Source: Thermoanaerobaculia bacterium
GTDB lineage: Bacteria > Acidobacteriota > Thermoanaerobaculia > UBA5066 > Gp7-AA6
Assembly: GCA_041481715.1 (NCBI GenBank)
Contig: JBGPCK010000004.1
Location: forward strand, 1 to 52,971
Length of the DNA: 52,971 nt
Direction of reading: 5' to 3'
Of the stretch, positions 5,175 to 23,286 are shown piece by piece (position 1 is the first letter of the stretch; every line of letters starts with the position of its first letter). The notes under the pieces are model-generated. The model saw only the letters and a list, made by a program, of their open reading frames with translations, had not been told where the DNA came from and did no database searches. Made by a program: the position numbers and the translations under genes.

Positions 5175-5217
5175 GTCGCTTTCTCCTCAGCCCGCGGCCT
5201 CGCCCGGCCGCGCGGCG

Positions 5218-6557: not shown

Positions 6558-6669
6558 GACCTGGTTCCGCGAAAGTCACGCTCGGAAGGCAGCCAAACAG
6601 CCTCTCTGGTCCTGACGATCCTGGCGTCACTCCGAAGGACGGTAGACTGAGCCCAACTTGGAGGTGGAC

Positions 6670-7488
6670 ATGGCGACCCCAAAGGAACTCCTGGACACGG
6701 GCCATCTCGACGGCGCAATCGAAGCCCTGACACAGGAAGTCAAGGCCAACCCATCCGACGCCACACGCCGCATCTTCCTTTTCGAGCTGCTCTGCTTCGC
6801 GGGACAGTTGGATCGCGCCGAAAAGCAAATCGACGCGCTCGGCCAGGAGAGCGCGCAGGCCTCCCTTGCGGTGCAGGTCTACAAGTCAAACGTCGCCGCC
6901 GAGAAGCAGCGCCTCAAGCTCTACCGCGAGGGCGCCCCGCCGCACTTCCTGAACGAGCCGCCCGCCTACGCGGACCTTCAGGTCGAGGGTATCCGGAAGC
7001 TCGCGTCGGGAGATACGGCGGGAGCCCGGGAGCTCTTCGACCGGGCCGAGGAAGAGCGGCCCTCGGTCGCAGGAAAGTGGAACGGGAAGGCCTTTCTCGA
7101 CTTTCGCGACTATGACGATGCCGTCGGCGGTGTGCTCGAGCTGATCGTCAAGGACAAGTACGCGTGGCTTCCCTTCGAGCAGATCCGAAGCATCCAGATG
7201 CGGCCGCCCGGCAAGCTTCGCGACCTGCTCTGGATCCCGACCCGCGTCGAGGCCCTGGACGGAACGATCGGCGAGGTCTTCGTCTTTGCTCTCTACGCCG
7301 GCTCGAGCGACAGCAAGAACGAAAACGCGCGGCTCGGCCGGATGACCGACTGGAGAGAAGTCGGCGACGGCCTCGTCGCCGGCGTCGGGCAACGCCTCTT
7401 CCTCGTGGACGAGGCCGACGAGCCGATCCTCGAGGCGCGGACGATCGAATTCGAAGCGCGAACCGCGGCCGCGGCGCCCGCGAGCTAG
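6670..7488 (+). CDS. tagJ: T6SS accessory protein TagJ (ImpE/SciE family)
   Basis: ATG 6670 after GGAGG; QEVKANPSDATRRIFLFELLCFAGQLDRA, DFRDYDD, YAWLPF, LRDLLW, LGRMTDW, GVGQR. Confidence 0.93.
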   Translation: MATPKELLDTGHLDGAIEALTQEVKANPSDATRRIFLFELLCFAGQLDRAEKQIDALGQESAQASLAVQVYKSNVAAEKQRLKLYREGAPPHFLNEPPAYADLQVEGIRKLASGDTAGARELFDRAEEERPSVAGKWNGKAFLDFRDYDDAVGGVLELIVKDKYAWLPFEQIRSIQMRPPGKLRDLLWIPTRVEALDGTIGEVFVFALYAGSSDSKNENARLGRMTDWREVGDGLVAGVGQRLFLVDEADEPILEARTIEFEARTAAAAPAS

Positions 7489-7509
7489 ACCTCTTCGTGG
7501 GCTATCGGC

Positions 7510-7992
7510 TCACGGTTTCGTCAGATCGAGCAGGTAGTTCACCGGACCCCCGGTGATTCCCAACGCCGACTGTGCTTTGTATTCCACCGTCATCTTGCTG
7601 TAAGCAATCCCGAATGTCTCGACCGGAATCGGTATCGCTTCTTCTTGCTTCGCCGCGAGGGAAAACGACGCAACGGAAGCATTCTCGAGCGTGCATGTGA
7701 AGTATTCCTGCTGCTTGGTACCACCCGCCTTTCGAACGGTGATCTCCGCCTTGATAATCTTGTTCTCACACATCGCCTTCAGAAGAAGCGGCGTGGCTAT
7801 GTCCGTGTGCTTGAAACACATCAGCGGCGCCATCTGTACTTTGCCGGCCGCCTGACCGGTGGAGATGTCTTTGGGGGCGTGGCCATTGAAGGAGAAGCTT
7901 TCGAGCTGAATCTCGTCCTTGTGATCGGCGTCCTTCGACTCTCCCGGAATGGCCATCTGGCCGGTTATCTTCAGAAAGATGTCAAACGCCAT
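7510..7992 (-). CDS. hcp: Hcp/TssD tube protein paralog 3 (divergent)
   Basis: MAFDIFLKI...IPGESKDADHKDEIQL, TVRKAGG..QEY, YSKMTVEYK; 160 aa; SD GAGGAGG. Confidence 0.92.
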   Translation of the reverse strand: MAFDIFLKITGQMAIPGESKDADHKDEIQLESFSFNGHAPKDISTGQAAGKVQMAPLMCFKHTDIATPLLLKAMCENKIIKAEITVRKAGGTKQQEYFTCTLENASVASFSLAAKQEEAIPIPVETFGIAYSKMTVEYKAQSALGITGGPVNYLLDLTKP

Positions 7993-8099
7993 GAGGCCTC
8001 CTCAGCCGAGAGCCGGGCTCGGGGCGATCGGCCGCCCCGACCCAAGGAGCCGAAACCCGCAGACCAGCAGAGACTGTCGCTTCTTCCCGCCTCCCTCGT

Positions 8100-8621
8100 C
8101 TAGCCCGCCTTCCTCGCCTTTTGGTCCCATATGGCCGACACGGCCCCGTCCAGGGACCCATCCGCTTTCTGCGGCTTGTACTCGATTTCATACTTGGCGG
8201 CGTCCAGGGCGAACGTGTCCATGACGAGCTGCGAATCCGGATCGATCCCGCCCACGCCGTACGTAGAGACGAGGCAGTCGTGAAACGTGTACTTTAAGTA
8301 TTCCTGCTGGTCCCCGCCGGCCTTGCGCACCACCAAGACAGCCTTGGGGATGTGCTTGCCGCTGGCGCAATACTTCATCAAATTGGGGCTCGACTTGTCC
8401 ACGTCCTTGTTGAAGTACATCGCCCCATGCTGGCTGACAGACCCTCCCATCCCTGAGCCCGTGTGAGCCGTCCCCTGCTGGGTCGTCCCGCTTTGATCCC
8501 CGGTCTTCGTCGCTTTATCGGCGTCAAGATGTCCGAAAGAGAGAATCTCGATCTCGTTCTTGTGCTTCGAGTCCTGGCTCTCGCCTTCGATCCCGTCTAT
8601 TTTCATGAAGTTGTCTGCCAC
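8100..8621 (-). CDS. hcp: Hcp/TssD tube protein paralog 2
   Basis: GTG 8621 after GAGGAGG: MADNFMKIDGIEGESQDSKHKNEIEI, DKSSPNL..CASGKHI, RKAGGDQQEY; 173 aa. Confidence 0.92.
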   Translation of the reverse strand: MADNFMKIDGIEGESQDSKHKNEIEILSFGHLDADKATKTGDQSGTTQQGTAHTGSGMGGSVSQHGAMYFNKDVDKSSPNLMKYCASGKHIPKAVLVVRKAGGDQQEYLKYTFHDCLVSTYGVGGIDPDSQLVMDTFALDAAKYEIEYKPQKADGSLDGAVSAIWDQKARKAG

Positions 8622-8739
8622 ATCGTCCTCCTCGGCTTCGTTCGTATCGCCTCGTCCGTCGCGTCCGGAAAGCCTGCCCGAGCGGAAATCACGAGCGCCC
8701 AGCCTGACTTCCGATCGGGCGCGAACCTGCCTTTCGGAC

Positions 8740-9306
8740 CTAGACGACCTTGTTCTCCTTGATGTTGTAACCGGCCTTGACGACACCCTCTCCCGTACCC
8801 TTCGAGCTCTGCGGCTTGTATTCCATCTCGAACTTCCCGAAGTTGAAGGACGCGGCATCCCTGAGGAGGCCGGACTTGGGGTCCGGGTCCGTGAGATGCC
8901 TGTGCTCGGAGACCAGAACGTCCGAGAGAGTGATCTTTATGTATTCGAGCTGGTCCTTCCCCGCCTTGCGGATGACGAGCTCGAGCTTCGGGAAGTGCTC
9001 GCCCGTCGCGCACTTCTCCCAAAGCTTCGGCGTGGACTTGTCCACGGTCTTGACGACGCTCAAGTCATGAAAAAAGCACTTGCTCGAGCCCGAGCCTCCG
9101 CCTGTGTGAGTGCTCCCGAGCTGGCGGACTCTCAGTCGGAAGCCCTGGATCTCGATCTCGTTCTTGTGCTTGTCGTCCAGGCTCTCACCCTGGACGCCGT
9201 CGATCTTGACAAACGCGTCGACCGCGATCGGAGTCGCCGGATCGATGACCTCCTCCAACTCCTCCGCGTCCAGTTTGTCCCACTTGTCGTACCCCTCGTA
9301 TATCAC
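8740..9306 (-). CDS. hcp: Hcp/TssD tube protein paralog 1 with acidic N-terminal extension
   Basis: GTG 9306 after AAGGAGG; core AVDAFVKIDGVQGESLDDKHKNEIEI, DKSTPKL..CATGEH, RKAGKDQLEY; 188 aa. The upstream part of the track ORF (to 10017) is antisense to a real gene. Confidence 0.9.
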   Translation of the reverse strand: MIYEGYDKWDKLDAEELEEVIDPATPIAVDAFVKIDGVQGESLDDKHKNEIEIQGFRLRVRQLGSTHTGGGSGSSKCFFHDLSVVKTVDKSTPKLWEKCATGEHFPKLELVIRKAGKDQLEYIKITLSDVLVSEHRHLTDPDPKSGLLRDAASFNFGKFEMEYKPQSSKGTGEGVVKAGYNIKENKVV

Positions 9307-9462: not shown

Positions 9463-10224
9463 ATGGCAGACACCTCGAGTACCCAAAAGCTCCTGGAGCT
9501 CCGAAGACTCACGCGAAGCGTCGCGGACCTCCTGCGCGGAGAGCTGAAGCAGTACCTTGCGACTCTGATGCCCCTCTTTCAGCCGCGCACCCTCCTCGGC
9601 CACTACATCCAGGGGGCCTCGAAGGAGCCGGTGCGGGGAGCGGACCGCGTCTTCAAGGACCTGGTCGCCGCCTACGAAGGCGTCTCGGGCTCGCGGCCCT
9701 TCAGCCTGCCCCGGGACCTCAAGCCGCCCCTTCCCGTAGACAGCAACGCGCTCGAGTTCGTCCCGTTCGTTTACCCTCACACGGCCAAGGGGAAAAAGGC
9801 AACCAAGACTGTCACGGTCACCTCGCCGCTTCGGTGGGTGCTTTCCTACTCCGGCTACGGGCCCGACCGCCTGCGTGAGGCCCTCGCGGCCGGCGACTCG
9901 TCCGGCGCGACGATCCTGGAACAGGTGCTCCACCACGTGCTTCTGAACGTCGCCTTTCAGCAAAAGGGTGTCGCGCCGCTCTTCGAGGCGCTCCGGTTTC
10001 CGGGCTCGACGCATCACTTTCCCGAGCTCGGGAACCTTCCCATCACCGTCATTTCCACGGCGGTCCCGACGGTGCGGCCGCCGGATGAAACGATCATCGA
10101 GTCGACCGAGATCTCGGGCTCGGACGCGTTCGAGGAGGTCATCGACGTGGCCGCCGTCCGCGAGCTCAAGGACCCGATGAGAGAGAGACTGGTCGCGACG
10201 CTCGAGTCTGCCGACGCCGGCTAG
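9463..10224 (+). CDS. Hypothetical protein (T6SS-locus associated, 253 aa)
   Basis: Natural amino-acid composition and GC3-rich codons, purine-rich SD-like AAGGGGG upstream, no signal peptide or TM; divergent from the hcp triplet. Confidence 0.85.
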   Translation: MADTSSTQKLLELRRLTRSVADLLRGELKQYLATLMPLFQPRTLLGHYIQGASKEPVRGADRVFKDLVAAYEGVSGSRPFSLPRDLKPPLPVDSNALEFVPFVYPHTAKGKKATKTVTVTSPLRWVLSYSGYGPDRLREALAAGDSSGATILEQVLHHVLLNVAFQQKGVAPLFEALRFPGSTHHFPELGNLPITVISTAVPTVRPPDETIIESTEISGSDAFEEVIDVAAVRELKDPMRERLVATLESADAG

Positions 10225-10424
10225 CGCTTCAGGCGGCCCGACGCCTTCTCCTCGCGAACCGCCTGCCGGATGTGCTCGGGCAGGATCTCGCCGTACTTGG
10301 AGAGCTCGTCCGCCCGCTTCAAGACGTAGTCGTTGACGAATTCGGCGAGCTCACGCAGGGCGAGGTCGGCTTCGATCGTGAGTGTGCCGTGGAGCTGATA
10401 ATCCTGGGGATGCCTCGGGTTCAT
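10221..10424 (-). CDS. Small protein with histone-fold-like alpha2-L2-alpha3 pattern (67 aa)
   Basis: SD GGGAGG upstream of ATG; TLTIEADLALRELAEFVNDYVLKRADELSKYGEILPEHIRQAVREE follows histone-fold periodicity. Confidence 0.75.
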   Translation of the reverse strand: MNPRHPQDYQLHGTLTIEADLALRELAEFVNDYVLKRADELSKYGEILPEHIRQAVREEKASGRLKR

Positions 10425-10488
10425 CGCCGCCCTCCCGCTTCAAAGCCCCTGGAAGGATTCTCCCCGATTCGGCGCGGCGACGAAAGCT

Positions 10489-11502
10489 TCACGAGGTCAG
10501 GAGCGACGAGAGCGGCCGCTCCCAAGCGGCCGCGTCGAATGGCGGCGCCTCCGAAGCGGCAATCGGGCCGGCCGAAGGGGCCGCCGGAGGATCCGGCGGG
10601 GCCGGCGCGATCCGGCCGGGGTTCAGGCAGAAAAAGTCTTCCGGACGGAGGTCCCGCGTGAAGAAGGCGGCCGCGCCGGGTCCGCCGCCGGCCGGGTAGA
10701 GCATTCCCGCCGGGAGCTTCCGTCGGGGAGAGGCCCCTGCTAGCCAGAGCAGCCAGAACTGCAGCTCTCGCGCCCGCGAAAGGACGCCCGAAAGCGGTAC
10801 GCGGACGGGCGGGGCGGAGGCCCCCGAATCGGCGGCGGACTTGCCAAGCTCGGAGAGCAGGCCCGGCCAGCGCGCCGCGGCTTCCTCGCCGAAGAGCGGC
10901 TTTGCCAACGTCGCAAGCGGGACGCGGTCGAACTCGACCCGAGCCTCGCGGGAGATCCGTTCGGGAGACTTGACGGGAAGATCGAGCTCTGCGCCGCGAT
11001 AGGCGCGGTAGAAGTTCGCGAGGGACCCACCCGGCCCGTAAACTCGGAGTACGGAGTCCGCCTGGCGGTTCAGCACCTCCAGGTGCTCGGTCGCCACGAG
11101 CGGGTCGGCGGCCCGATGACCTCCGGGAAGAACGGTGAAGAGCGTGAAAGGAAACCGCCGCAGGCCTCCCTCGTCTCCGCTGCCCCAAAGGCACCCGGCC
11201 ACGAGAACCTCCGATTCCGGCAGCTTCAAGAGGAACAGGTATCGCGCGATCTCGACCTCTCGGCAGGCCTCCTCGCGCGACCAGAGATGCGAAAAGCCTC
11301 GGTCGATCCAGTTGCGAAACTCGCGAGCCCCCGGCTCCGTCAGCCCGGAGGTGATGAAGTCCTTGTAGATCGGCAGCTTGCCGTAGGCGTTGAGCGGGAC
11401 ACGGACGGTGCGGACCGGCTTCTCCTGCCCGCGGGCGTCGCCCTTGAACCCGTCTCTCAGTCGCGACAGGAATCCCGGGCGTCGAGCGGAAGTGTCTTCC
11501 AC
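10489..11502 (-). CDS. tagF: TagF-like T6SS post-translational repressor
   Basis: AYGKLPIYKDFI (TagF GKLPxxGDF), W..RG, VAGCLWGSGDEGGLRRFPF (S-x-D...R-x-FP); directly downstream of tssM. Confidence 0.8.
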   Translation of the reverse strand: MEDTSARRPGFLSRLRDGFKGDARGQEKPVRTVRVPLNAYGKLPIYKDFITSGLTEPGAREFRNWIDRGFSHLWSREEACREVEIARYLFLLKLPESEVLVAGCLWGSGDEGGLRRFPFTLFTVLPGGHRAADPLVATEHLEVLNRQADSVLRVYGPGGSLANFYRAYRGAELDLPVKSPERISREARVEFDRVPLATLAKPLFGEEAAARWPGLLSELGKSAADSGASAPPVRVPLSGVLSRARELQFWLLWLAGASPRRKLPAGMLYPAGGGPGAAAFFTRDLRPEDFFCLNPGRIAPAPPDPPAAPSAGPIAASEAPPFDAAAWERPLSSLLTS

Positions 11503-11509
11503 AGGCGGC

Positions 11510-14500
11510 TCAATGGTGGATGACGCCCGGCAGCGGATCGTCGAACTTCAGCTCGAAGACGCCCTGGAGACGCCCGCCCGCGCGCTCTGCGTCCGGAATC
11601 TCCACCCGAATGTCCCAGACACGAGGGTCGGCGCCCGGCCGCCGGTCCTCGCTCGCGCGCAGGATGTAGGCGAAGAGCCGTAGCGGTCCCCCCGTGATGA
11701 CGAGGGATCCGGTCCATCCTCCCTTGACGTCCTCGTTCCTCCCGATGATCTCCAGAGCCGAGGCCGCGGCGGCCAGGCGCCAGACGAAGGGCGGCGGCGT
11801 GCGCCCGGTTTTCACGTCCGTCGAGGGCCGCAGAACGGTCGCATGGTCGAAAACCGTTACCTGCCCCACGCGATCTCCGAGAAAGAGGGTTCCGGCCGAT
11901 GGCGTCCGCTCGACCAGCCGCACTTCGATGTTGTGCTGTTTTGCGGTGGCCCCGGGCTGAGCATTCGCGCCGAAGAGGAAGAGCTGCCAGTCCCGCGCGA
12001 CCGCGAAGATCGGCCTCGGATCGCCCACGAAGTCGAACTCTCGGGCTTCACCCCTGAGGATCGGATCGAGCCCGAACTCCGACGCGAGCGCCCCGAGCTC
12101 CGCGAGCGGCCCATTGACGTCCTCCGGGCTGATCGTCGGAATGTCGAGCGTGTAGCGAATGGCGCCGGCCGGGCCGCCGCGCGAGTAGGCCTGCCCGGAC
12201 GCGAGCTGCGGCCGGTCGCTCTGGAGAACGAGATCGTTGATGAACGGAAACTTTCCGAGGCAGCACGCGTTCAAATGCTCCGAGACGCCCTTGCCGCGCG
12301 CCTCGAAGCGCGGGCGGATCTCGTCGCGCAGCAGGTGCGCTCCGTGGTCCTCGACGCCGTGCTTCATTCGCTGGGCCGTCGCGTCGCCGCGCAGACGGGG
12401 GTTCTCGGAAAAGACCTTGTACTGCTTGAGCGACGCGGCGTCGCTGCCCGCAAGCTGCTTCCAGGCCTCCAGCGGACCGTCCGCCAATCCCTGCACGACG
12501 CCGCGGAAGCCCTCGGCCGCCGCGAGCAGCTCCGGCGCCGTCCTTTCGCCCGCGGCCGCCGCCCGCGGCCGCTCGATGCGGTTCTTGTAATAGTCGAGCG
12601 CGTCGCCGAGGTTCGCGTTTTCCTGGACGAACGTCTGCATGTCCGCGTAGGAGAGTTGCGCCGCCAGGTCCGGGGCCGCCGCCCCGCCTCCGCCGCCCGA
12701 GGGCTGCCAAGAGCTGACGGCTCGCCGGAAGGCCGGCCAAGTCCCCGCTTCCGCGGCGGCGCTCGGAAAAAAGAACCCTCCCCCGCTACCGGCGTGGCCG
12801 GCCATCTGATCGATGTAGCGCCTGAGGTACGCCGACTCGGTTTCCGAGAGCCTCCGGATCGCCGGCGCAACACCCTCCCAGCCCGAGACGAGGCGCTGGC
12901 CCGCGGCCGTGAACACGACGCCGCTCGCGGCGGACATCATGGCCTTGGCGAAGACAGGTGTGTAGCAGCTGGCCGGCGGGCACTGCGGCCCCAGGGAGTC
13001 TCCGAAGAACTGCTGCGCCGGCGGAACGGTTCGGGCGAGGAGGCCGAGCTCGACCGCCTCGTCGACGCGCGGCCTCCGGTCGGTCCACTGGAACGCCGGA
13101 TCGGGATTCGAAGCCGAGAAGTCGGCGGACTTGCCGAGGAGGCCCCTGCCCGTCGAGTCCTGCCGGCCGCGCCACTCGTCGATCTTCTTTTTCTTCTCGT
13201 CCCAGTTCGGCATCGCCGAGAGCGCCTCGACCAGCTTGCCGTCCTCCGATTCCCGGTAGGCCGCCGGGTCGGAAAAAGCGGCAAGCCCGTTCAGCACGCC
13301 GGCCAGCGACTCGGCGGGTTTCGACCACTTGACCTTGCCGGCCGGATCCGTCTCGAGCAGGTACTTGAAGCCTTCCCGGTCCTTCTGGAGCTGCTGCCAG
13401 TCGCCATCGAGCTGCCTCTTGAGCGTGTCCCGCCGGGTCTCCGATATGAGGTTCGCGGCCACGGGGGCCCAACGCAAAAGACCCCCGTAGTCGGCGTCCA
13501 GATTCTGCTTCCATGCGGAGGGCTCCGCCCCGGGAAAGGCGCCCTTGGATCCGGGACGGGGTGTCGCCATGTGCCGCGTCAGGCCGTCGTAGTTGTCCTT
13601 GAACTTCTTTCCCGCGGCGGCCACGGGAACGAGGTAGTCCGGATATGCCGTTTTCCCGGCTGAGGCCATCTGCCCGTAGAGCAGCATGTAGGCGTTCAAC
13701 CCGTCCTGCAGCTTCTTGTCCCAGCGCGCCAGGTTCCCGACCGTCCAATACTCCTCATACTTGGAGAGCCCCGGCGCCGGATCGGGCACCGCGATGCCGA
13801 GCGACTCGTTGGTGACCCGAGCGCCCTCGAGGACGCGGTCGGCATCCCCCGCCGCGACCCGGGGAACCCACTCGTCGATCTCCGCGCCGCGATCGGTCGC
13901 CTTCGCGCCCTTCGTGCGGCGGGCGAACTCGACGAGCGGCTGCACCCGGAGCTCCTGCGGCGCCACGTGCAGGCCCTCCGGCGCCTTCTTGAAGGCGAGC
14001 CAGTCGAGACCGACACCGAGTGCGTCGCGGAACGACCGATACTCGGAGAAGCTCTCCCAGTCGAGCGCCGCCATCCGCCCCTGCACTTCCGCGAGTAGCG
14101 GGGCCACGACTCCCCCCACGTAGACCTTCTCCTGAATGCGCGCGAGCGTATTGGTCAGCTCGTTCGAACGTGTCCCGCGCAGGAAGAGCGTAAACATCCA
14201 CCGCCGCTTGACGACCTGGTCGCGGTCGTTCTGGAGCCGCAGCGCGATGTCCCAGGCTCGGGCGACCGGGCAGGGCTTTCCGACGCACTCCTGCGCCGCT
14301 TTCACATCCTTGCGGATGGGGTTGAGCACCCCCTGCAGCGAGCGGTAGGCCGGGATCATCCCGGCCAGAAAGAGCAGCAGCACGAGGACGCCCAACCCGC
14401 GCACGAGCCAGAGCGTTCGGCGCTGCTGCGCCTCGGCCGCCGCCGTGCGCGTGATCAGACCCTGCTCGGGAAAGACCTTCTTCTCGTAGAAGTGGCGGAT

Positions 14501-15721
14501 GAAGAAGGCGCGCGACTTCTTGAAGATGCTCTCGAGGCTCTCGATGACCCCTTCCGAAGCGCCTCCGGGCGCTTCGAGCAGGTCGCGGGTCGCCTGCGCG
14601 ATCGGCCGCCCCTGCTGCACGCCGCTCGAGATGTAGAACCCTCGGAACGCGAACGGCTCGTCAAAGCGCGTCTGCTGGAAGATCGTCTTGAGATACCCCT
14701 TGAGCGGGGCCTGAAGCGCCCGGAACTCCTCGGGAAAAACATAGAGCTTGTCTGCCTGGGCCGGGTTTTCCTCGTCGGCGAGCAGTCTCAGCCGCAGCTT
14801 GTAGAGGCGCTCGGTGATCGCGTCATAAGTCCCGTCGAAGCTTTCGGGATCCCAGGCCTTTCCCGGCCCCTCGGGGCTCGACCAGCCGAAGAGCTGCTGC
14901 TGGTCCACGGGATCGAGCTTCGAGAAGAACTCCGAGAAACCGAGGATCCGATCGGCCTTGGTGACCATGATGAAGACGGGGAACCGGATCTGGAGCACGC
15001 GCTGGACGTGCAGGAGCTTGGCGCGGATGTTGGCGGCCTTGCGCTCCCGCTCCTCGGGAGCGTCCTCGAGCAGCGAGGTGCACGGAATGACGACGAGGAC
15101 GCCGTTGATCGGACAGTACTTGCGGTACCTCCGCAGGAGCTTCAGGAAGGAGCCCCACTCCTGCTGGTCCGGGGCCGCCTCCTCCTGGAACGTGAAGCGC
15201 CCCGCCGTGTCGAGGATCACCGCTTCGTTGGCAAACCACCAGTCGCAATTGCGAGTGCCTCCGGCGCCGGAGAGACCCTCGGTGCCGACCGGGAACTCGA
15301 GCCCGGAGTTCTTCAAGGTGGTCGATTTGCCCGACTGGGGCTCGCCGATCAAGAGGTACCAGGGGAGCGAATAGACCGACAGCCCGGCCTGCTTCAACTG
15401 ATTGACCGACTCGGACCACTTGGCCGTGAGGTCGCCCAGCGCCTGGCGAACCTCCTCCTTCGAGGCGCCGGCCTTCTGGGAATCGCGCCGGAGCTCTCCT
15501 TCGAAGGCGTTGGCCTGGCGCTTCTCTCGGGCCCGAAGGGCCATGTTGAAAAGACCGAGCACGAGGACGATTACGAGCAGCCCGAGCACGAAGACCCACC
15601 AGTACCTCTCGACCCCAAGCCACCGGGAGATCACATAGACCATCGGAATGAGAATGAAGATCGCGCCCAGATACTTGAGGGGGCGCGGCAGGCGCTGCAG
15701 GAGGTCGAGGAATTCGTACAT
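11510..15721 (-). CDS. tssM: T6SS membrane complex subunit TssM (IcmF), divergent periplasmic part
   Basis: Two N-terminal TMs, LPWYLLIGEPQSGKST Walker A, GTRNCDWWF, DTAGR, TKAD, FRGFYISSG, third TM, late GKFPF; 1403 aa. Confidence 0.93.
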   Translation of the reverse strand: MYEFLDLLQRLPRPLKYLGAIFILIPMVYVISRWLGVERYWWVFVLGLLVIVLVLGLFNMALRAREKRQANAFEGELRRDSQKAGASKEEVRQALGDLTAKWSESVNQLKQAGLSVYSLPWYLLIGEPQSGKSTTLKNSGLEFPVGTEGLSGAGGTRNCDWWFANEAVILDTAGRFTFQEEAAPDQQEWGSFLKLLRRYRKYCPINGVLVVIPCTSLLEDAPEERERKAANIRAKLLHVQRVLQIRFPVFIMVTKADRILGFSEFFSKLDPVDQQQLFGWSSPEGPGKAWDPESFDGTYDAITERLYKLRLRLLADEENPAQADKLYVFPEEFRALQAPLKGYLKTIFQQTRFDEPFAFRGFYISSGVQQGRPIAQATRDLLEAPGGASEGVIESLESIFKKSRAFFIRHFYEKKVFPEQGLITRTAAAEAQQRRTLWLVRGLGVLVLLLFLAGMIPAYRSLQGVLNPIRKDVKAAQECVGKPCPVARAWDIALRLQNDRDQVVKRRWMFTLFLRGTRSNELTNTLARIQEKVYVGGVVAPLLAEVQGRMAALDWESFSEYRSFRDALGVGLDWLAFKKAPEGLHVAPQELRVQPLVEFARRTKGAKATDRGAEIDEWVPRVAAGDADRVLEGARVTNESLGIAVPDPAPGLSKYEEYWTVGNLARWDKKLQDGLNAYMLLYGQMASAGKTAYPDYLVPVAAAGKKFKDNYDGLTRHMATPRPGSKGAFPGAEPSAWKQNLDADYGGLLRWAPVAANLISETRRDTLKRQLDGDWQQLQKDREGFKYLLETDPAGKVKWSKPAESLAGVLNGLAAFSDPAAYRESEDGKLVEALSAMPNWDEKKKKIDEWRGRQDSTGRGLLGKSADFSASNPDPAFQWTDRRPRVDEAVELGLLARTVPPAQQFFGDSLGPQCPPASCYTPVFAKAMMSAASGVVFTAAGQRLVSGWEGVAPAIRRLSETESAYLRRYIDQMAGHAGSGGGFFFPSAAAEAGTWPAFRRAVSSWQPSGGGGGAAAPDLAAQLSYADMQTFVQENANLGDALDYYKNRIERPRAAAAGERTAPELLAAAEGFRGVVQGLADGPLEAWKQLAGSDAASLKQYKVFSENPRLRGDATAQRMKHGVEDHGAHLLRDEIRPRFEARGKGVSEHLNACCLGKFPFINDLVLQSDRPQLASGQAYSRGGPAGAIRYTLDIPTISPEDVNGPLAELGALASEFGLDPILRGEAREFDFVGDPRPIFAVARDWQLFLFGANAQPGATAKQHNIEVRLVERTPSAGTLFLGDRVGQVTVFDHATVLRPSTDVKTGRTPPPFVWRLAAAASALEIIGRNEDVKGGWTGSLVITGGPLRLFAYILRASEDRRPGADPRVWDIRVEIPDAERAGGRLQGVFELKFDDPLPGVIHH

Positions 15722-15724
15722 CGC

Positions 15725-16420
15725 TTAGGTGGAGAGCCCCATCCCTCGGGCCGCCTGGCGCAACTCGTCCATCGACGTGCCCCACAGGGCAAACGCGAGG
15801 ATGTAGTACAGAACGAGCACGCCGAAAGCGACGATCAGGACGCGGTAGAGGTTGATGAGCGGCGAGAGCTTCCGCGCCGGCTGCGGCAACACCTGGTACG
15901 CCTCCGGCGTGATCTTGTCCCCGAGCGTCGCGATCCATTCGGCATTCATGCGGTAGAGCCGCTTGCGCGCTTCGGCCAGCTTCTCCGGCCGCTCACGGTA
16001 TTTCCCGCCAAAGCCAAGCGCGATCCCGGTCGAGAGGATCGCCGCGAGCTCCACGTCCCGTGTGGGATCGAGCTCGTTCGCGATCGAGAAGTACTTCTCG
16101 CCGCCGATGTTCGTATTGAAATATTTCTCCTCGAGCAGCTGCCTCTCCCACTGCGGCGCGTACTCCCAGCCCGAATGCAGAAGAATTTCGTCGGCCAACA
16201 CGACCAGCGGATAACGCGCCTTTTCGTAGAGCGACTCCAGCTTCGGATCGTCTCGCACCTCGCGCCCCAGATCGGAAAAGATCTCGTCCAGGCGATCGGA
16301 GACATCCCGCAGCTCGACGCGCAGGCCCTTGCGGACCCGCCGCCGGAAAGCGGTCAGGAACAGAAACAGCTTCGAGGTCGCCCGAAAGATTTCCGCCGTG
16401 TTGTCGCGCGGCTTATCCAC
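15725..16420 (-). CDS. tssL: T6SS membrane subunit TssL (DotU)
   Basis: ARYPLVVLADEIL, W..QLLE..YF.TNIGGEKYF, ALGFGGKY, C-terminal TM; no OmpA domain. Confidence 0.92.
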   Translation of the reverse strand: MDKPRDNTAEIFRATSKLFLFLTAFRRRVRKGLRVELRDVSDRLDEIFSDLGREVRDDPKLESLYEKARYPLVVLADEILLHSGWEYAPQWERQLLEEKYFNTNIGGEKYFSIANELDPTRDVELAAILSTGIALGFGGKYRERPEKLAEARKRLYRMNAEWIATLGDKITPEAYQVLPQPARKLSPLINLYRVLIVAFGVLVLYYILAFALWGTSMDELRQAARGMGLST

Positions 16421-17780
16421 GGGCGGCTCCGGGCTTGAGCACGATGTACAGAGCGAACTTCATCTTCGGGTCGGTCGCGCCCGCCACCGCGATCACGCGG
16501 TCGCGAATGACGTTCGCCCAGTAGGGGCCGTCCTTCTCGATCGAGAAGTAGAAATAGTCCTCGCGCGCCGGAAGGCCGGACGGCACGCGCTTCAGCATCT
16601 CGACGTCGAGCCCGAAGAGGCGTCGCTGCTTGAGCAGAGGGATGTCGGAAGCCGTCCCGAGTTTCAGGACCTCGAAGCGGCTCTTGACGTCCTTTTCGTC
16701 GAGCTCGGATTCGATCAGCAGGTAAACCTCGGTCTCCGGCGCGAGCCACTCGGCGGCGAGCTCCGCGACGAGCAAATCCTCGCGGATCTTGAAGTCCACC
16801 TTGATGAATCGCGACGCGACGATCCGCTCGGCCAGCATCTCGAGCGTATGGGTGATCTCGAAGAAGCAGGGCCCGAGGTTGTCGTGGTCGTACAGCGGCA
16901 CCTTCGGCAGTTGGCGCTCGCCGGAGAACATCGAGAGCTCCCCGACCAGCCGGCAGAACTCGGTGTACACGGTGAAGGGGTGGATCCGCGGAATGCGGGT
17001 CAACTGCTGAAAGAGGTAGAGGAAGGAACCGAGGATCTGGAGCTTCAGAATCGGCTGCCATCCCGTGGTTCCCTCGGAATCCACCGTCAGCTTGCCCTCG
17101 ATAATCTCCGCGGCCAGGAAGCGATGCTTGGCCTCGAGGCGATTGGTCACCGACTGGCACAGATTTTCGAGGGCGGACCAGGCTCCCAACTCCGTCACCG
17201 GCGGGATGAATTCGGTGGAAAGAACCGGCGTGTTCTTCCCCTGCCCGGACCGCTCGACCAACGCGATGGGCAGGCACTCGAAGCCCTCGCGGCTCTCGGC
17301 GCCGAAGAAGAAACGTCCGTTTGCCCGGCGCACGTCGACCGGCTGGGCATTCGATCCCGTGTTCTCGTCGAGAACCTCCACGGTCTCGACGCTGTAACGC
17401 CGGTTCTGGCCGCCTCCCTTTTCCCCGGGCGCAAACGCGTTGGCCTCGAGCTCCCTCCAGGAAGGAACTCCGAGATACACCGGCATACGCCCGCCGGCCT
17501 GGTCGAGCTCTGCCTTGAAGCTGCGCGAGGGGAGCCGCAGGTTCGACGCGAGGGAAAGAGAGGTTCCGTCCTTCAACTTCACCTCGGCGTCGCGGACCTC
17601 GAAGTTGAAGTTCTCCAGCTGGTCCGCCGCGATGTCGATCTTGAGGATTCCCCAGAAGAAGGGCTGCAGTCTCCGCACTTCCTGCCGGAGTACGTCTGCC
17701 CGCTGCCGCTCTGCCAGCTGCAGGTGGTGCGGCCGCAGAAACATGCCTTCCGACCAGTGCACCTCCGGCGTCTTGGACAT
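16413..17780 (-). CDS. tssK: T6SS baseplate subunit TssK
   Basis: VHWSEGMFLRPHHLQ, FIPP, HPF..Y, YDHDNLGPCF. Confidence 0.95.
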   Translation of the reverse strand: MSKTPEVHWSEGMFLRPHHLQLAERQRADVLRQEVRRLQPFFWGILKIDIAADQLENFNFEVRDAEVKLKDGTSLSLASNLRLPSRSFKAELDQAGGRMPVYLGVPSWRELEANAFAPGEKGGGQNRRYSVETVEVLDENTGSNAQPVDVRRANGRFFFGAESREGFECLPIALVERSGQGKNTPVLSTEFIPPVTELGAWSALENLCQSVTNRLEAKHRFLAAEIIEGKLTVDSEGTTGWQPILKLQILGSFLYLFQQLTRIPRIHPFTVYTEFCRLVGELSMFSGERQLPKVPLYDHDNLGPCFFEITHTLEMLAERIVASRFIKVDFKIREDLLVAELAAEWLAPETEVYLLIESELDEKDVKSRFEVLKLGTASDIPLLKQRRLFGLDVEMLKRVPSGLPAREDYFYFSIEKDGPYWANVIRDRVIAVAGATDPKMKFALYIVLKPGAARG

Positions 17781-17795
17781 CGGCTCGTCCAGATC

Positions 17796-18263
17796 CTAGC
17801 GCGCCGTGACTGAAAGCTCGCGGTCGTGCACCGCGATGTCCAGAGTCTTGCCGTTCCAGCGCTCCCGCGGGAGGGAGACGATCTGCCGGCTGGCGTCCGG
17901 GCTCTGGTACTTGTAGTCCGCGATGATGACGAGGTACTTGTCCTTGCCTTCGGCCTTCACGGAGACCTGGCGCTCGCAGAGACCGGAGGCGTCCTTGGTC
18001 GGAAAGGTGACGGTCGTCGTGCGGTCGCGCATCGTGTCGCGCAGGGAATCGTAGAACCATTTCTCGCCGAGCACCTCGATCTGGCGGGCCTGGGCCTCGT
18101 TGGCTCGGACGATATCCACGGTCAACAGGAGCCCCCCGTTGATCGCCGAGTCGCAGCGAAAGTGAAGCGAAGAGGAGCTCGCACAGCCGACGGCGACCAG
18201 GACGGCGACCGGGAGCAGCATCGCGAGAATACGGGAAGGGCGCCGCCGGGAAAGGCTTTTCAT
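17796..18263 (-). CDS. Lipoprotein, probable TssJ-like
   Basis: ATG 18263 overlaps the fha stop; basic N-region, hydrophobic stretch and lipobox VAVGC; AINGG.LLTVDIV, KWF, VIIADY resemble TssJ; sits immediately before tssK. Confidence 0.75.
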   Translation of the reverse strand: MKSLSRRRPSRILAMLLPVAVLVAVGCASSSSLHFRCDSAINGGLLLTVDIVRANEAQARQIEVLGEKWFYDSLRDTMRDRTTTVTFPTKDASGLCERQVSVKAEGKDKYLVIIADYKYQSPDASRQIVSLPRERWNGKTLDIAVHDRELSVTAR

Positions 18264-20233
18264 GATTGCCTCCGCTTCGAGAGCTTGTCGAACTCCTCCT
18301 GAGCGAGCCGATACGTCGCCTGCAGCACCTGGTCCTGAACGACCTCGGGCGTCAGACCCTTGACCGTCTCCCGGTATCGGCTCCACCACTCCGCGGCCTC
18401 GCCGCGGATCTTCCAGGTCCCCCCCTTGGCCGTGGAGGCTTCGATCGCCGAGGGGCTCGCGCGCTTCCAGAGCTTGTCGAACCACAGGCGCACGGACTCG
18501 TGGTGCGCCGCCAGGATCGCCACCTGCCAGCGCTCGAGCTCGCGCAGGTACTCGGAGAGCGTCTTCAAGTCCACCGGTTTTCCCTGTTCCAAGGCCGAAA
18601 GGAGCCCCTCCAGCGTATACCGATGTCCGGGAAGGCGGAAGCTCATGGTCGAGTCGCCCGGCATCGTCACACCCTGCACGAGGCCGAGCAGGAACCGTTC
18701 CATATGCCGCGCAAACGAAACGAGCGCATGCAAGGCGGTTAGATCCGGCCCCTCCCCGGAGGCCGGCTCGGGCGCCCGCTCCGCCAGAAGCACCTTCCAG
18801 GGCACCGCTCCCGCCGGCCGGCGCTCGGGCGGTGCGGCTGGTGCCCGCTCGGCCCGGACCTGCTCGAGTCGTTGCTCGAGGTCATGAATGCGGTGCAGCA
18901 GCCTCGGCAGCTCGTCGGCCTCGGCGGGCGGCGGCGCGCCCACGACGGGGAACTGAACGCGGATCTGCGAAAGAATGCGGCTTCGGTTCTCGGGAGCGAT
19001 CGCCGCGAGCGAGCGGTTGACCAGAGCCTTCAGCACGGTGCGGCGGTCCTCGGGCGTGGAAAAGCGATAGAGCGTCGCCGCCTCCTCGAGCTCCAGTGCG
19101 ATCGCCCGCGCGCGCTGGTCGAGGACCCGGTCCCCCGTCGTCGAAAAGGCTGGCTCCGTCCCCCGCTCCGGCCGGGAGACCGGGGCCGGTTCCCGCTCGG
19201 TCGCAGGCGCGGCGGCTTCTTCCTCGGCCCGCGCCGCCGCCCGAGCGGCGGCGGCATCCCTGCGAAGGCGCGTGGAGGCCACGGTTTCATCGTCGAGCCG
19301 AGAGATTCGAGCGCTCTTGGAAGGCGCGGCGGTGGAGACGACGGTCTTTCGAGGCGCGGACCGGCGGGGCGGGGCGGGCGCCTCGGCGCGAACACCCTCT
19401 TCCAGAAGCCAGCCCCCCACGGCATCGTCGACCCTGGCGAGCAACGCAGCGAGCAGGGTTACCGCCGCAGCCGATTCCGCCTCCACGGAAGGAAAGGCGC
19501 CGAGCCGGCCCGCGACAGCGGAGGCGAGCTGCCTTGCGCGCGGGGACAATGGCGACGCGCCGGGGACCCCCTTCGATTCGACCGGCGTCGAGAGGAACCG
19601 CTGCAGCCAGGCCAAGGAACCCCGGAAGAGTGCCCCCTTCCAGAGCCCGTCGAGCGTCTCCGCGCGCGTGTGCCGCGCCCGGGAGAAGCCCTTCTCGACG
19701 AGGGCATCTCCGCAGCGAAGAACGGCGTCCGCCAGGTGCCGGCTGTCCACGAACGCCTCCCCCCGGCGTCGGGCGGCTTCGCGCGCGAGCGCGAGGATCT
19801 TGCGCAAGGAACCGTCGGCCTCGAGCTCCTCGGCCGACCGTTCCGGTGCCGAAGCCTCCGTCCGCGGCTCCGCCACGAGCTCGACGCGCACGGGGGTCGT
19901 CGAGAGTAGGAAGATCTCGCCGGATTCGATCGCGATCTCGCCAATCACGGGCTTGTTCCGGACGTAGGTCCCGTTGGTGCTCTTCAGATCCTTCAGGAAG
20001 AGCTTCCCGCCCGAGCACCGCAGCTCCGCGTGGAACGAAGAGATGCCATCCCCTTCCGACAGCACGAACTGGTTTTCCAGGCCGCGCTTTTCGTCGGCGC
20101 GGCGGCGTCCGATGCGGACAATCGTGTCCGCCGAGGACGGCGCCGGCTCGAGGTGCCGCATCCCCTCCATCGGGCCAAGCCAGACATCCAGGCTAAGCAC
20201 GGGGTCTGAGGCCCGCACCGGACGGTCCGCCAA
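18260..20233 (-). CDS. FHA-domain T6SS protein (Fha/TagH-like) with internal Clp N-terminal domain
   Basis: FHA motifs IGRR, ISSFHA, DLKSTNGT; Clp-repeat-like LRKILALAREAARRRGEAFVDSRHLADAVL and PLSPRARQL...TLLAALL; TagH-like C-terminus (WQVAILAA...SPSAIEA...WWSRY). Confidence 0.85.
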   Translation of the reverse strand: MADRPVRASDPVLSLDVWLGPMEGMRHLEPAPSSADTIVRIGRRRADEKRGLENQFVLSEGDGISSFHAELRCSGGKLFLKDLKSTNGTYVRNKPVIGEIAIESGEIFLLSTTPVRVELVAEPRTEASAPERSAEELEADGSLRKILALAREAARRRGEAFVDSRHLADAVLRCGDALVEKGFSRARHTRAETLDGLWKGALFRGSLAWLQRFLSTPVESKGVPGASPLSPRARQLASAVAGRLGAFPSVEAESAAAVTLLAALLARVDDAVGGWLLEEGVRAEAPAPPRRSAPRKTVVSTAAPSKSARISRLDDETVASTRLRRDAAAARAAARAEEEAAAPATEREPAPVSRPERGTEPAFSTTGDRVLDQRARAIALELEEAATLYRFSTPEDRRTVLKALVNRSLAAIAPENRSRILSQIRVQFPVVGAPPPAEADELPRLLHRIHDLEQRLEQVRAERAPAAPPERRPAGAVPWKVLLAERAPEPASGEGPDLTALHALVSFARHMERFLLGLVQGVTMPGDSTMSFRLPGHRYTLEGLLSALEQGKPVDLKTLSEYLRELERWQVAILAAHHESVRLWFDKLWKRASPSAIEASTAKGGTWKIRGEAAEWWSRYRETVKGLTPEVVQDQVLQATYRLAQEEFDKLSKRRQS

Positions 20234-20420
20234 CGGAGTCTCTCAGCCCGCCCGGCGGCCGGTCAGGCGCCGCAGCCTTTTCAAGAGGGCTCCGTTGCCA
20301 GCCGGCAGGCGATCAAAGAAAACTCGATCCCAGAAATGGATGCGGTCTTCTCGGTCTTTTCCGGTCTCACGGGTTCTGCGAGCATTATAAACAGCGTCCG
20401 TCTCGCGCGGCGGCGCGAGC

Positions 20421-22628
20421 TCAAGCGACTGGCGTTCTCGGCCCGCCCTCGCGCCGGACCGGACCCGTGGCGTCGGCGATCTTCTCGGTCAACAGCTCGG
20501 CGAGCACGTGTTGGATCTCCAGGTTCGTTCCCTGCCGGCCGAAGAGGAGTCCCCTCGCTTCCCCGGCGAGCAACTCGATCTCGTTGCCGAGCCGCTCGAT
20601 CTTTTCGGTGGGATGCTTCTCATCGTAGTCGGCCGGGTTAATGCAAAGGGAGAACCCCGATAGCCGCGTCGCCAAACGTAGACCAAGAAGGAGCGCCCGC
20701 TTCCAGAGAGCGTCGGGTATGGCGTTGGGGCGCTCTGCCTCGCGATCCAGAGCCTGGTAGAAGACGTTGGCCTTTCGGAACGCGGTGGCGAGCTCCGCGT
20801 CGCGCTCGATCAGGACCGCGGCTCCCGGACCAGACAGAACGTTTGCCAGGGTCGTGTCTCCGGCCGCCGCGAGGCGTTTTCCGACCTTCTCGACGGCAGC
20901 CTGGATCCGCCGGGCGTCCTGGCCGTCGTTGCCGATGAGCAGCCGCAGCAGGATGACGCCCAGGGAGTAGAGGTCGCTCGGGGCGGCGAAGTCCGAGTAA
21001 ATCTTGTAGAGGGCGCCCGGGATCCGGACGCCGGAGCTCTTCTTCAGGCGCTGCGCGGCGGCTTCCTCGAGCGCCATCGGCTCGCTGATGAAGTGAACCT
21101 CGTTCGCGTCCCCCGTCGCCCGCGGGTCCCGCCGGGCGGCGAAAGTCAGCGCGGAGAACCCAAGCGCATCGTTGTCCAGCGTAACCAGAATCCAATCGCG
21201 GTCGCTCGGATCCGGGTAGATCCCGTACGGATCCGAAAGGCGGCCATGAAGGCGCCAGCCCCGCTCCGCATCGCGGCTCGCCGGGCCCGCCTCCACCTCC
21301 GAGATGACCAGTTGCGCCGGGCGCGTCGGCGTCAAGTGGAACTCGAGCACTTCCGGCGGCGCGTAGGGAGCGAAGGCATTGCGCGGCGGGACCGTGACCT
21401 CTGCGACGCCCGCCAACCGCTCCGAACGGGCGGCCGAAGACAAGCCGTGAAGCCGCGCCCGGAACGTCCAGGCGGAGGGCAGTCCCTCGCCCGCCGCCGA
21501 CAGATCGAAGAGCACGTGGCGCGGGTGAAGGTCGAGGTGCGGCCGGCCGGTGTGCCGAGAGTACGCGAGCAGGCCCGCAACGATCTGGCGGAAGGCGGAA
21601 AGCTTCAAATAGAAGACTTCGACCGCGTCCATGCCCGACCCGTCGGCCCCGAAGAGCAGCCGCCCTTGCGCGGGGAGCGCCACCGGGTAGCGCAGCCGCG
21701 CCCCGAGCGACAGGGAGCGCGGAACCGGCTTCTCGCCGAGGAACGATTCGGGCAGCCGACCTCCGAGCCAGTCCGCGAACTCGTCGAGCGAGAGCTGGCC
21801 CAGCCCCGTCAACAGGTAGGGCGAGTCGTAGAAATTCAGCGGCGCCCAGCGCCCCTCCCAGAACGGGGCGGCCCGCATGCCCGACGCGAACGCGGTCTGA
21901 AACTGCCGCGCCGCCTCGCGGCAGCCAGCGCATGGAAAGGACTCGGCCACCGGACTCGACTCCGTCGCGCCCGCCAGCGCCTCCCCAAGGTCGCGATAGA
22001 GATCCACCGCCGTCAGGCTCTCCCCTTCCGGGGTTTTCGCCGGCGCCTCGAAGCTGTAGAACGGCGAGGGCGGATTCTCCGCCGCGCACCGCGGGCAAAA
22101 GAGAAAGCGCTCGAGCGAGGACGCAAAGAGTGGCAGCCGCGCCGCCGCAAGCACGGCGTCCTCACGACAGGTCTCCAGGGCCGTGCCGCAGCGGGGACAG
22201 GGAGGTGAAAAGAAACATCGGTCCGGAACGCAGAAGAGAAGGGGCGGGAGCCGTTCGGGCGCCTGCCCGCCGGGCCGCAGAAACCGAGGCACGGAGAGTC
22301 CCGCGGCGCCGAGCTCCCGCAGGCGCCCGGACTCCAGGCTCCATCGCTCCTCGATCGAAGCGTTGTTCAGGGAGGGGTCCGGAATCACGGGCAGCGGGTG
22401 CGCGTTGCGTGGCAGTTTCAACGCCGCAAAGTCCAGGACACTGTCCCCGTCTCCTTTGAGGATGGCGAGGTACACCCGCGCAAAGTCCTCTTCCTCCGAA
22501 AGCACGAGGAACGGGCCGGCCCCGTCCGCCGCGGATTCCGACACCACGACCTGCAGAGAGAACGCTGCGGGCTCGGCCGGCAGGATCGGCGCGGACTCGA
22601 CGGGCGCCATGAGCGACGAGGATGTCAT
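20421..22628 (-). CDS. Cys-rich, degenerate Ser/Thr protein kinase-like protein (~735 aa)
   Basis: FARVYLA...AALKL, HLDLHPRHVLF, YAPPE, SDLYSLGVILLRLL; CxxC motifs inserted. Start 22628 or 22610; the track ORF extension to 23471 is antisense to the tlpA-like gene. Confidence 0.8.
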   Translation of the reverse strand: MTSSSLMAPVESAPILPAEPAAFSLQVVVSESAADGAGPFLVLSEEEDFARVYLAILKGDGDSVLDFAALKLPRNAHPLPVIPDPSLNNASIEERWSLESGRLRELGAAGLSVPRFLRPGGQAPERLPPLLFCVPDRCFFSPPCPRCGTALETCREDAVLAAARLPLFASSLERFLFCPRCAAENPPSPFYSFEAPAKTPEGESLTAVDLYRDLGEALAGATESSPVAESFPCAGCREAARQFQTAFASGMRAAPFWEGRWAPLNFYDSPYLLTGLGQLSLDEFADWLGGRLPESFLGEKPVPRSLSLGARLRYPVALPAQGRLLFGADGSGMDAVEVFYLKLSAFRQIVAGLLAYSRHTGRPHLDLHPRHVLFDLSAAGEGLPSAWTFRARLHGLSSAARSERLAGVAEVTVPPRNAFAPYAPPEVLEFHLTPTRPAQLVISEVEAGPASRDAERGWRLHGRLSDPYGIYPDPSDRDWILVTLDNDALGFSALTFAARRDPRATGDANEVHFISEPMALEEAAAQRLKKSSGVRIPGALYKIYSDFAAPSDLYSLGVILLRLLIGNDGQDARRIQAAVEKVGKRLAAAGDTTLANVLSGPGAAVLIERDAELATAFRKANVFYQALDREAERPNAIPDALWKRALLLGLRLATRLSGFSLCINPADYDEKHPTEKIERLGNEIELLAGEARGLLFGRQGTNLEIQHVLAELLTEKIADATGPVRREGGPRTPVA

Positions 22629-23258: not shown

Positions 23259-23286
23259 CCTGGAATCCCCCTTCCTATGGAGGCAC

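Follow-up and report, generated by a model that had tools for sequence, protein, structure and literature searches.

The 52,971-bp contig JBGPCK010000004.1 of a soil-type Thermoanaerobaculia bacterium (phylum Acidobacteriota; assembly GCA_041481715.1, 219 contigs, 81% complete), analysed here over its whole length as contig C4 and called the window, carries a type VI secretion system (T6SS) locus in which a kinase-superfamily gene, kinL, adjoins the gene for the forkhead-associated protein Fha. On the minus strand the genes are ordered kinL, fha, a lipoprotein gene at the tssJ position, tssK, tssL, tssM, tagF and s67, and the next gene, unk253, is convergent with them. Beyond unk253 lie two hcp genes, tagJ/impE, tssA, tssB, tssC, tssE, tssF and the start of tssG, which runs into the contig edge. 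To our knowledge, what is understood of how T6SS firing is controlled after translation comes almost entirely from Proteobacteria, in which the membrane kinase PpkA works together with PppA, Fha and TagF. The window locus is a real, non-canonical T6SS control arrangement, and it is probably headed by a pseudokinase, KinL, coupled to Fha in place of the customary membrane-kinase switch, and closed by the TagF repressor, forming a KinL–Fha(Clp_N)–TagF control module. An earlier note on this DNA had proposed a rewired T6SS switch made of five genes, namely kinL, an FHA–ClpN fusion, tagF, s67 and unk253. The gene layout and coordinates that it gave are confirmed by the open reading frame (ORF) listing, which together with third-position GC and Pfam/NCBIfam scans supplied the gene calls in the window. 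The public relatives of the window genes belong to metagenome-assembled genomes (MAGs) named Thermoanaerobaculia or Acidobacteriota.

The kinL gene (20421..22628, minus strand) encodes a soluble, kinase-fold-like protein of 735 amino acids (aa) with a degenerate active site; the public gene call starts 6 codons later and gives 729 aa. Downstream of it, fha/tagH (18260..20233, minus strand) encodes a protein with an FHA domain at residues 39–110 (Pfam, 1.2e-11). Residues G42, R43, S65, H68, S85, T86 and N87 of this domain, which form the Gly-Arg, Ser-x-x-His and Ser-Thr-Asn motifs, are invariant in 15 orthologs. We take them to be the phosphothreonine (pThr) pocket of FHA domains and, with the pocket residues intact, the domain is predicted to be pThr-competent. 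The C-terminal region of residues 540–631 matches T6SS_FHA_C (PF20232) weakly (15.3 bits, E 0.018, cut-off 23.7), and 11 of the 15 orthologs give this match at E ≤ 0.1 (best 1.1e-4). The FHA domain and the T6SS_FHA_C matches together indicate that the window Fha is a TagH. Between them, a Clp_N-like region at residues ~140–285 is followed by a Pro/Ala-rich linker. A profile of this middle region built from 13 orthologs and run against the PDB has ClpC and ClpB N-domains as all of its top 16 chains (best E 1.1e-5), and hhalign aligns the region with Clp N-domains from relatives at 80.6%, against 0.15% for a control. Pfam Clp_N (PF02861) is matched by 3 of the 15 orthologs, and only one repeat is visible by sequence. 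As to the FHA–ClpN fusion of the earlier note, the FHA part is well founded, but the ClpN part holds moderately, by remote homology only, the window Fha having no Pfam Clp_N match. In the nearest relative (G001, 80% KinL identity), ClpV has a Clp_N of its own.

The membrane-complex genes follow fha directly. The gene at the tssJ position (17796..18263, minus strand), whose start overlaps the fha stop, sits between fha and tssK and encodes a 155-aa lipoprotein that has a signal peptide with a Cys lipobox and a transmembrane-like signal segment; it has no T6SS-SciN/TssJ match in Pfam or NCBIfam. It is followed by tssK (16413..17780; T6SS_VasE 4.2e-82), tssL (15725..16420; DotU 3e-26) and tssM (11510..15721; IcmF-related_N 9.8e-68), all on the minus strand. 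The tssJKLM block described earlier is therefore recovered, with TssK, TssL and TssM assigned by Pfam and the TssJ place taken by the lipoprotein. The identification of tagF (10489..11502, minus strand) is also sound: its product matches TagF_N (PF09867) at 4.5e-10, with 40 bits against a cut-off of 27, and reaches 39.3 bits with TIGR03373, just below the cut-off of 41.2. In Agrobacterium tumefaciens TagF is fused to PppA. The C-terminal extension of the window TagF, by comparison, is a Pro-rich tail alone, without a family match.

kinL as a probable member of the protein kinase superfamily

Homology of KinL to protein kinases is shown by profile comparison over the motif-bearing segments of the protein, and the relationship is a remote one. 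An alignment of 153 full-length members, consisting of the window protein and search matches of 640–790 aa, was compared by hhalign with a profile of 45 Ser/Thr kinase domains from the window's own genome. The catalytic segment of KinL matches this profile with a probability of 96.6% and an E value of 6.9e-10, placing HLDLHPRH on HRDLKPxN, LHGL on DFG and PYAPPE on the APE motif. The C-lobe segment matches at 78.8% and the N-lobe segment at 28.8%, the latter with ALK on VAIK. The three segments are colinear on the kinase template (positions 5–85, 81–202 and 192–286), and five controls, namely the reversed segment, the beta insert, the zinc region, the tail, and the catalytic segment against a Clp_N profile, stay at 0.1–0.8%. 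A narrower profile of 30 close KinL sequences gave the subdomain-IX match alone (83.5%), so the wider 153-sequence alignment was needed. Nineteen distant members were hand-picked for a Pfam scan, ten of them mixed and nine chosen for a length of ~1100 aa; in three of the 19, Pkinase (PF00069) matches below threshold at the catalytic loop (19.7–26.1 bits against a cut-off of 31.7). An ESM-Atlas feature search with an 80%-identical KinL ortholog (P0012) has Pkinase clusters as its best matches (0.95, 193 shared features).

The AlphaFold2 (AF2) model of full-length KinL has a mean predicted local distance difference test score (pLDDT) of 72.3 and a predicted template-modelling score (pTM) of 0.53, with disordered stretches at residues 294–331 and 415–429. 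Its secondary-structure elements run as five strands and a helix, a Cys-rich region, a long helix, the catalytic loop, two strands, a beta-rich insert and a helical bundle, and in this model the order fits two kinase lobes interrupted by inserts. KinL has no transmembrane-like segment, its highest 19-residue hydropathy being 1.55 with no value above 1.6, and it has no Pfam domain, in agreement with the earlier description of a kinase-like protein without a transmembrane or periplasmic sensor. A word-indexed search found 67 relatives, every one of them unannotated, and an exhaustive profile search through 1.84 billion cluster representatives recovered 1197 with E ≤ 0.001 (469 with E ≤ 1e-30), which indicates that the KinL family is large.

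The active site of the window KinL departs from that of a protein kinase at most of its motifs. An acidic stretch, SEEED, stands in the place of the Gly-rich loop, His371 replaces the catalytic-loop Asn and Gly395 occupies the DFG-Asp column; K71, placed by the weak N-lobe alignment, and D366 of HLD are kept. Across the 153 members, the Lys is present in 120 and the HxD Asp in 93, the Asn column holds His in 87 and Asn in 27, the DFG-Asp column holds Gly in 100 and Asp in 40, and the complete K-D-N-D set occurs in 5. Catalytic columns that drift in this way across a family are what pseudokinases typically show. Within the near clade, which includes the genomes G001, G002 and G003, K71, D366, H371 and H394 (K, D, H and HG) are identical in 66 of 66 members at an overall identity of 42–82%. 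The residue pattern makes it more likely that KinL is a pseudokinase scaffold rather than a kinase that throws a phospho-switch. The idea that the kinase-like gene encodes a phospho-switch enzyme is accordingly not upheld: the Gly-rich loop, the catalytic-loop Asn and the DFG Asp are lost, and just 93 of 153 members have the HxD Asp.

Two inserts interrupt the predicted kinase lobes. A CxxC…C…CxxC insert contains C144, C147, C154, C178 and C181, which are retained in 136, 120, 148, 122 and 120 of the 153 members, respectively. The pattern is that of a zinc ribbon, and Pfam zinc-ribbon matches are far under threshold. The beta-rich insert at residues 436–545 (window positions ~20994–21323, minus strand) lies between the APE-like motif and the subdomain-IX helix and is predicted to form a beta-barrel. 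It is the sole part of KinL with high-probability Foldseek matches, which are to the FAD-binding barrels of siderophore-interacting proteins and cytochrome b5 reductase (probability 0.94–0.99 over 114–116 columns, template-modelling score 0.24–0.26 on the target). The ties to redox or metal sensing and to sheath recycling that the earlier note drew from the extra domains are unsupported and remain guesses.

Genomic linkage of kinL and Fha

Neighbours of kinL were surveyed by tblastn with the window proteins at 31 loci in 31 genomes, one genome per species. T6SS genes are present at 28 of the 31 loci, and in the other 3 the contig ends inside kinL. The colinear order kinL-fha-tssJ-tssK-tssL-tssM-tagF is found at 19 loci, and at 4 more kinL and fha run together up to the contig end. 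At 4 loci, which form a group with 31–34% identity, kinL lies beside tssB/tssC, and at 1 locus it lies within a rearranged T6SS locus. At two loci of the tssB/tssC type (L026 and L029), Pfam scans downstream found housekeeping genes and ordinary kinases and no FHA. An evenly drawn sample of 251 genomes of the class contains kinL in 18 and TssK (PF05936) in 35, and every kinL genome is TssK-positive. In all 18 the TssK is of the high-scoring type (E 1e-72 to 1e-84); in the other 17 TssK genomes (E 1e-32 to 1e-47) no kinL match was found with this query. In a phylum sample, the profile search found kinL in 4 of 301 genomes, one of them weakly (G503, E 1.5e-5), with a sensitivity limited by the scoring of 3 candidates per genome. 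Judged by gene neighbourhood and co-occurrence, kinL is thereby shown to be strictly linked to the T6SS.

The link of kinL with fha goes beyond gene order. In 7 of the 19 scanned distant members, KinL and a C-terminal FHA domain are parts of one protein of ~1100 aa, and 5 of these 7 also have T6SS_FHA_C. One of the seven fusions is named at source as an FHA protein of a Planctomycetota MAG, and a second, unfused KinL member also comes from Planctomycetota. That KinL and Fha act jointly is argued mainly from these natural fusions and from their conserved adjacency. A complex prediction with residues 20–720 of KinL and 1–290 of Fha scored 0.00 against a mark of 0.32 and speaks neither for nor against binding. 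The co-occurrence expected in the earlier note is found for three of its five genes, kinL, fha and tagF accompanying the T6SS wherever flanking DNA exists. The five genes do not form one fixed module: s67 was found in the near clade only, and unk253 lies ~27 kb from tagF in relatives of family f2.

Genes for a canonical kinase and phosphatase pathway were sought in and around the locus. The window contig has no Pkinase or PP2C_2 match, which bears out the earlier statement that no pppA is in the window; the 62 Pkinase matches and the 1 PP2C_2 match of the genome are all on other contigs. In G001 the locus is contiguous and reads kinL…tagF-s67-unk253-hcp-tagJ-tssA..G-clpV-vgrG-PAAR-like toxin-Imm11-VipB-like. 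By tblastn, no kinase or PP2C is found in the G001 and G002 loci over 20 kb upstream and 40 kb downstream, nor in the G003 locus over the ~10 kb upstream of kinL to the contig start and 40 kb downstream. Synteny with G001 places the start of contig C4 next to the end of contig C3 (62472) across an assembly gap, and neither clpV nor vgrG is present in the assembly of the window's genome. The G001 stretch matching this gap contains clpV, vgrG, two small genes, a PAAR-like toxin domain, a 309-aa gene, Imm11, a HEAT-like gene, a 295-aa gene and a VipB-like gene, and Pfam detects no kinase or phosphatase in it. At the locus edge in family f2, beside the unk253 paralogues, there are two C-terminally membrane-anchored Ser/Thr kinases, a PP2C and an FHA protein, all with transmembrane-like segments, and this island is adjoined by three lysine-methyltransferase-like genes and a VipB-like/gp19-like pair. 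Canonical phospho-signalling genes therefore do occur at the edge of some related loci. In the window's genome the island proteins are represented only by paralogues of a generic kind, at ~33% identity. Whether a ppkA/pppA pair lies just outside the window thus receives a divided answer from the relatives, with none in the loci of G001, G002 and G003 but a membrane kinase/PP2C/FHA island at the locus edge in family f2.

A proposed pseudokinase scaffold and its alternatives

Like the H1-T6SS of Pseudomonas aeruginosa, which has PpkA/TagE, PppA/TagG, Fha1/TagH and TagF, the window locus has Fha/TagH, TagF and TagJ, and a kinase-superfamily gene adjoins fha at the membrane-complex genes. Unlike PpkA, however, KinL has no transmembrane segment, no periplasmic (vWA) domain and no intact active site, the Gly loop, the Asn and the DFG Asp being absent; no PP2C and no PppA are encoded in the window locus, and the window Fha has an extra Clp_N-like domain. 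What stands of the rewired switch proposed in the earlier note is a T6SS control region whose locus encodes neither a PpkA-type membrane kinase nor PppA. In A. tumefaciens, Fha is reported to be recruited via phosphothreonine (TssL-pThr) and opposed by TagF (PMC3953482, PMC5995506). The Agrobacterium case indicates that the pThr bound by Fha may sit on a protein other than the kinase, although, unlike the window locus, Agrobacterium uses an active PpkA.

These comparisons allow a working model of the module. KinL, as a pseudokinase scaffold, would bind Fha, with which it forms one polypeptide in some Planctomycetota-type relatives, and would present it to the TssJLM/TssK assembly platform. Any phospho-input would be supplied by one of the many Ser/Thr kinases whose genes lie at other places in the genome, or by activity left in KinL. 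TagF would counteract Fha, as in Pseudomonas and Agrobacterium; TagF–Fha antagonism in known systems is described in passages of PMC5995506. These steps, from the binding of Fha by KinL and its part as a scaffold to the origin of the phosphate and the opposition by TagF, are all ones that we infer. For a non-catalytic kinase fold at the core of a secretion machine, or as its organiser, there is a parallel in YukC, the membrane pseudokinase of the type VIIb secretion system of Bacillus subtilis (excerpt of bioRxiv 10.1101/2020.05.09.085852). YukC differs from KinL in being membrane-anchored and in belonging to another secretion system, and the likeness is drawn by analogy, not homology.

Several observations weigh against this model. 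The window KinL gives no Pfam Pkinase match even at E ≤ 10 and no match at all in Pfam, NCBIfam or, by sequence, the PDB (searched with the single protein and with the 30-sequence profile). The description of KinL as kinase-like in the earlier note stands by remote homology (the hhalign, ESM-Atlas and sub-threshold Pkinase matches), but not by overall structure, since a Foldseek search of the PDB with the whole AF2 model returned nothing at E ≤ 0.001 and no kinase among the matches listed. The N-lobe alignment that defines K71 is weak, and the invariant pocket of the near clade may still do chemistry, so that KinL need not be catalytically dead. Loci of family f11 have no FHA gene adjoining kinL. 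Contact between KinL and Fha is inferred from adjacency and fusion. The apparent absence of ppkA and pppA from the window's own locus is read from relatives, the genome being incomplete and the clpV–vgrG part unassembled.

It is possible, though unlikely, that KinL is an active atypical kinase in which a His-rich cleft (H364, H368, H371 and H394, with D366 and K71) replaces the Asn and Asp metal ligands; such a kinase would phosphorylate Fha, TssL or itself and would be a soluble functional substitute for PpkA. The identity of K71, D366, H371 and H394 in all 66 near-clade members, whose sequences otherwise diverge widely, is in favour of this, as are the intact FHA pocket of Fha, which needs a pThr ligand, and the lack of another kinase in the loci of close relatives. 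However, an acidic stretch stands for the Gly-rich loop, both canonical metal ligands are gone, the positions drift family-wide in the usual pseudokinase pattern, as seen for the HxD Asp and for position 394, which is often hydrophobic, and the many Pkinase proteins of the genome could supply phosphate in trans. These same kinases, together with the single PP2C_2 protein on another contig, the partly unassembled T6SS locus and the membrane kinase/PP2C/FHA island at the far edge of the same locus in family f2, would fit a canonical membrane Ser/Thr kinase and PP2C pathway encoded elsewhere, in the assembly gap or on another contig, with KinL as a structural add-on that has no regulatory role. 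We regard this as quite unlikely, given that the G001, G002 and G003 loci contain no kinase or PP2C by tblastn, that the G001 gap region contains none by Pfam, and that the proteins of the f2 island find only generic paralogues in the window's genome.

A far less probable explanation is that KinL does not have a kinase fold at all and owes its motifs to convergence, being a novel multi-domain T6SS accessory such as a baseplate or membrane-complex adaptor with a zinc ribbon and a beta-barrel. The Foldseek result for the whole model, the absence of Pfam and PDB sequence matches and the moderate confidence of the AF2 model with its two disordered stretches would be expected from such a protein, but the three colinear hhalign matches have clean controls, the look-alikes found by the language model are all kinases, Pkinase is matched at the same motif in three distant members, and the order of secondary-structure elements in the model fits kinase lobes. 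There is also a slim possibility that KinL is a metal- or redox-gated switch, not a dead scaffold, in which the clade-invariant His cluster of the former ATP/Mg cleft and the CxxC…C…CxxC ribbon set between the lobes would bind zinc or another metal, and occupancy or oxidation would decide whether Fha, acting through its FHA or Clp_N-like domain, nucleates the T6SS. If this were so, the locus would have a cytoplasmic firing trigger without a counterpart in the described TagQRST–PpkA pathway.

The pseudokinase scaffold would have a wider meaning. KinL represents a large, unannotated family with a soluble kinase fold, predicted from remote homology, and a decayed active site, whose link to Fha is one of gene order and, in some lineages, of fusion. 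If KinL is a pseudokinase scaffold, it would offer a second way, and a widespread one, to achieve assembly through Fha, in Acidobacteriota and, by its named carriers, in Planctomycetota, and would be a new bacterial example of pseudokinases organising secretion machines. Titles and abstracts retrieved for the T6SS with pseudokinase, or for Acidobacteria or Planctomycetes with kinase, contain no such T6SS component. A term search of the main text of a 2026 review of T6SS accessory factors (PMC13584744) gives no Planctomycetes, Acidobacteria or Myxococcus, and the 10 occurrences of "kinase" in 12 of its 18 passages concern PpkA/TagE, RtkS, PknS, RetS and VirA.

Accessory genes and the rest of the locus

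The convergent gene unk253 (9463..10224, plus strand) encodes a 253-aa protein and is a real gene of a conserved family, so the convergent unknown of the earlier note is confirmed. The family has 340 relatives without annotation and a mean column identity of 61% over 36 members. In the class sample unk253 occurs in 16 of 251 genomes; 15 of them are kinL- and TssK-positive, and the sixteenth has a partial paralogue match alone. Where contigs allow the distance between unk253 and kinL to be taken, it is 11–41 kb. The near clade has the tagF-s67-unk253 arrangement of the window, and the family f2 genomes have a tandem duplicate of unk253 at the far end of the locus, ~27 kb from tagF and 31–41 kb from kinL. 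The AF2 model of unk253 is confident (pLDDT 90.5, pTM 0.86), and Foldseek finds nothing for it in the PDB (best E 0.29) or BFVD (best E 0.037). ESM-Atlas scores are ≤ 0.89, a recognition under the usual mark and therefore uninformative. This distribution makes unk253 a conserved, fold-unmatched family that appears confined to kinL-type T6SS loci, and thus a second unexplained, locus-restricted component with a confident model. A role as an effector or immunity gene was considered and rejected, the family being too conserved for it and a PAAR-like toxin/Imm11 pair being present elsewhere in the G001 locus.

The s67 gene (10221..10424, minus strand), whose 3′ end overlaps unk253 by 4 bases, encodes 67 aa and has 52 relatives at 63–94% identity. 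It is 75–92% identical in three relatives in which tagF is only ~50–63% identical, which marks s67 as a genuine gene under constraint. No copy was found downstream of tagF in either of the two family f2 genomes examined. The histone-fold likeness that the earlier note saw in this ORF finds no support in the sequence searches: there is no Pfam or NCBIfam match, and a profile of 4 orthologs gave five weak, unrelated matches in the PDB (best E 0.12), none to a histone. Judged from their conservation and placement, unk253 and s67 are conserved accessories of the locus and not demonstrably part of the KinL–Fha–TagF switch.

The remaining T6SS genes of the window form a minus-strand block at 3..8858, which runs from the partial tssG (3–710) through tssF, tssE, tssC, tssB and tssA to the two hcp genes; tagJ/impE (6658–7488) is on the plus strand. 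The second hcp ORF (8100–8858, minus strand) encodes 252 aa with the Hcp domain confined to residues 84–227, and is either an N-terminally extended Hcp or has its true start internally. Relatives have two or three tandem hcp copies at the matching place. The stretch missing from the window's genome measures ~24 kb in G001 and carries clpV, vgrG and effector/immunity genes; downstream of vgrG, the PAAR-like toxin-domain gene, the 309-aa unknown and the Imm11-family gene (L044:17870-19775) probably make up the effector/immunity set that goes with this type of T6SS.

A second, divergent sheath-like gene with a VipB domain, ~26–33% identical to true TssC, is found at the far edge of related T6SS loci (L050:3-1286 and L050:1987-3015 in G004, L045:2474-4042 in G001 and L048:428-1825 in G003). 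In G004 a T4 gp19-like tube gene adjoins it, and the interval from the unk253 paralogues to the sheath-like gene is occupied by three tandem genes of ~520 aa (L049:15019-19719); the one of these that was scanned has methyltransferase, regulatory and PKMT winged-helix domains. At L029:8152-9975, a single VipA/VipB-like fusion gene stands directly upstream of kinL. On the other side of the window locus, a 733-aa protein encoded at 27026–29227 (minus strand) matches the acidobacterial VWA-domain model TIGR03436 at 1.5e-54 and has no Pfam match at E ≤ 0.001. Nearer to kinL and divergent from it, a TlpA/ResA-like thioredoxin gene and an outer-membrane beta-barrel gene occupy 22209–23931 (plus strand), with housekeeping genes beyond. 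The order tlpA-omp-yjeF is kept in five close relatives (L001, L002, L003, L005 and L006), indicating that this boundary of the T6SS locus is conserved.

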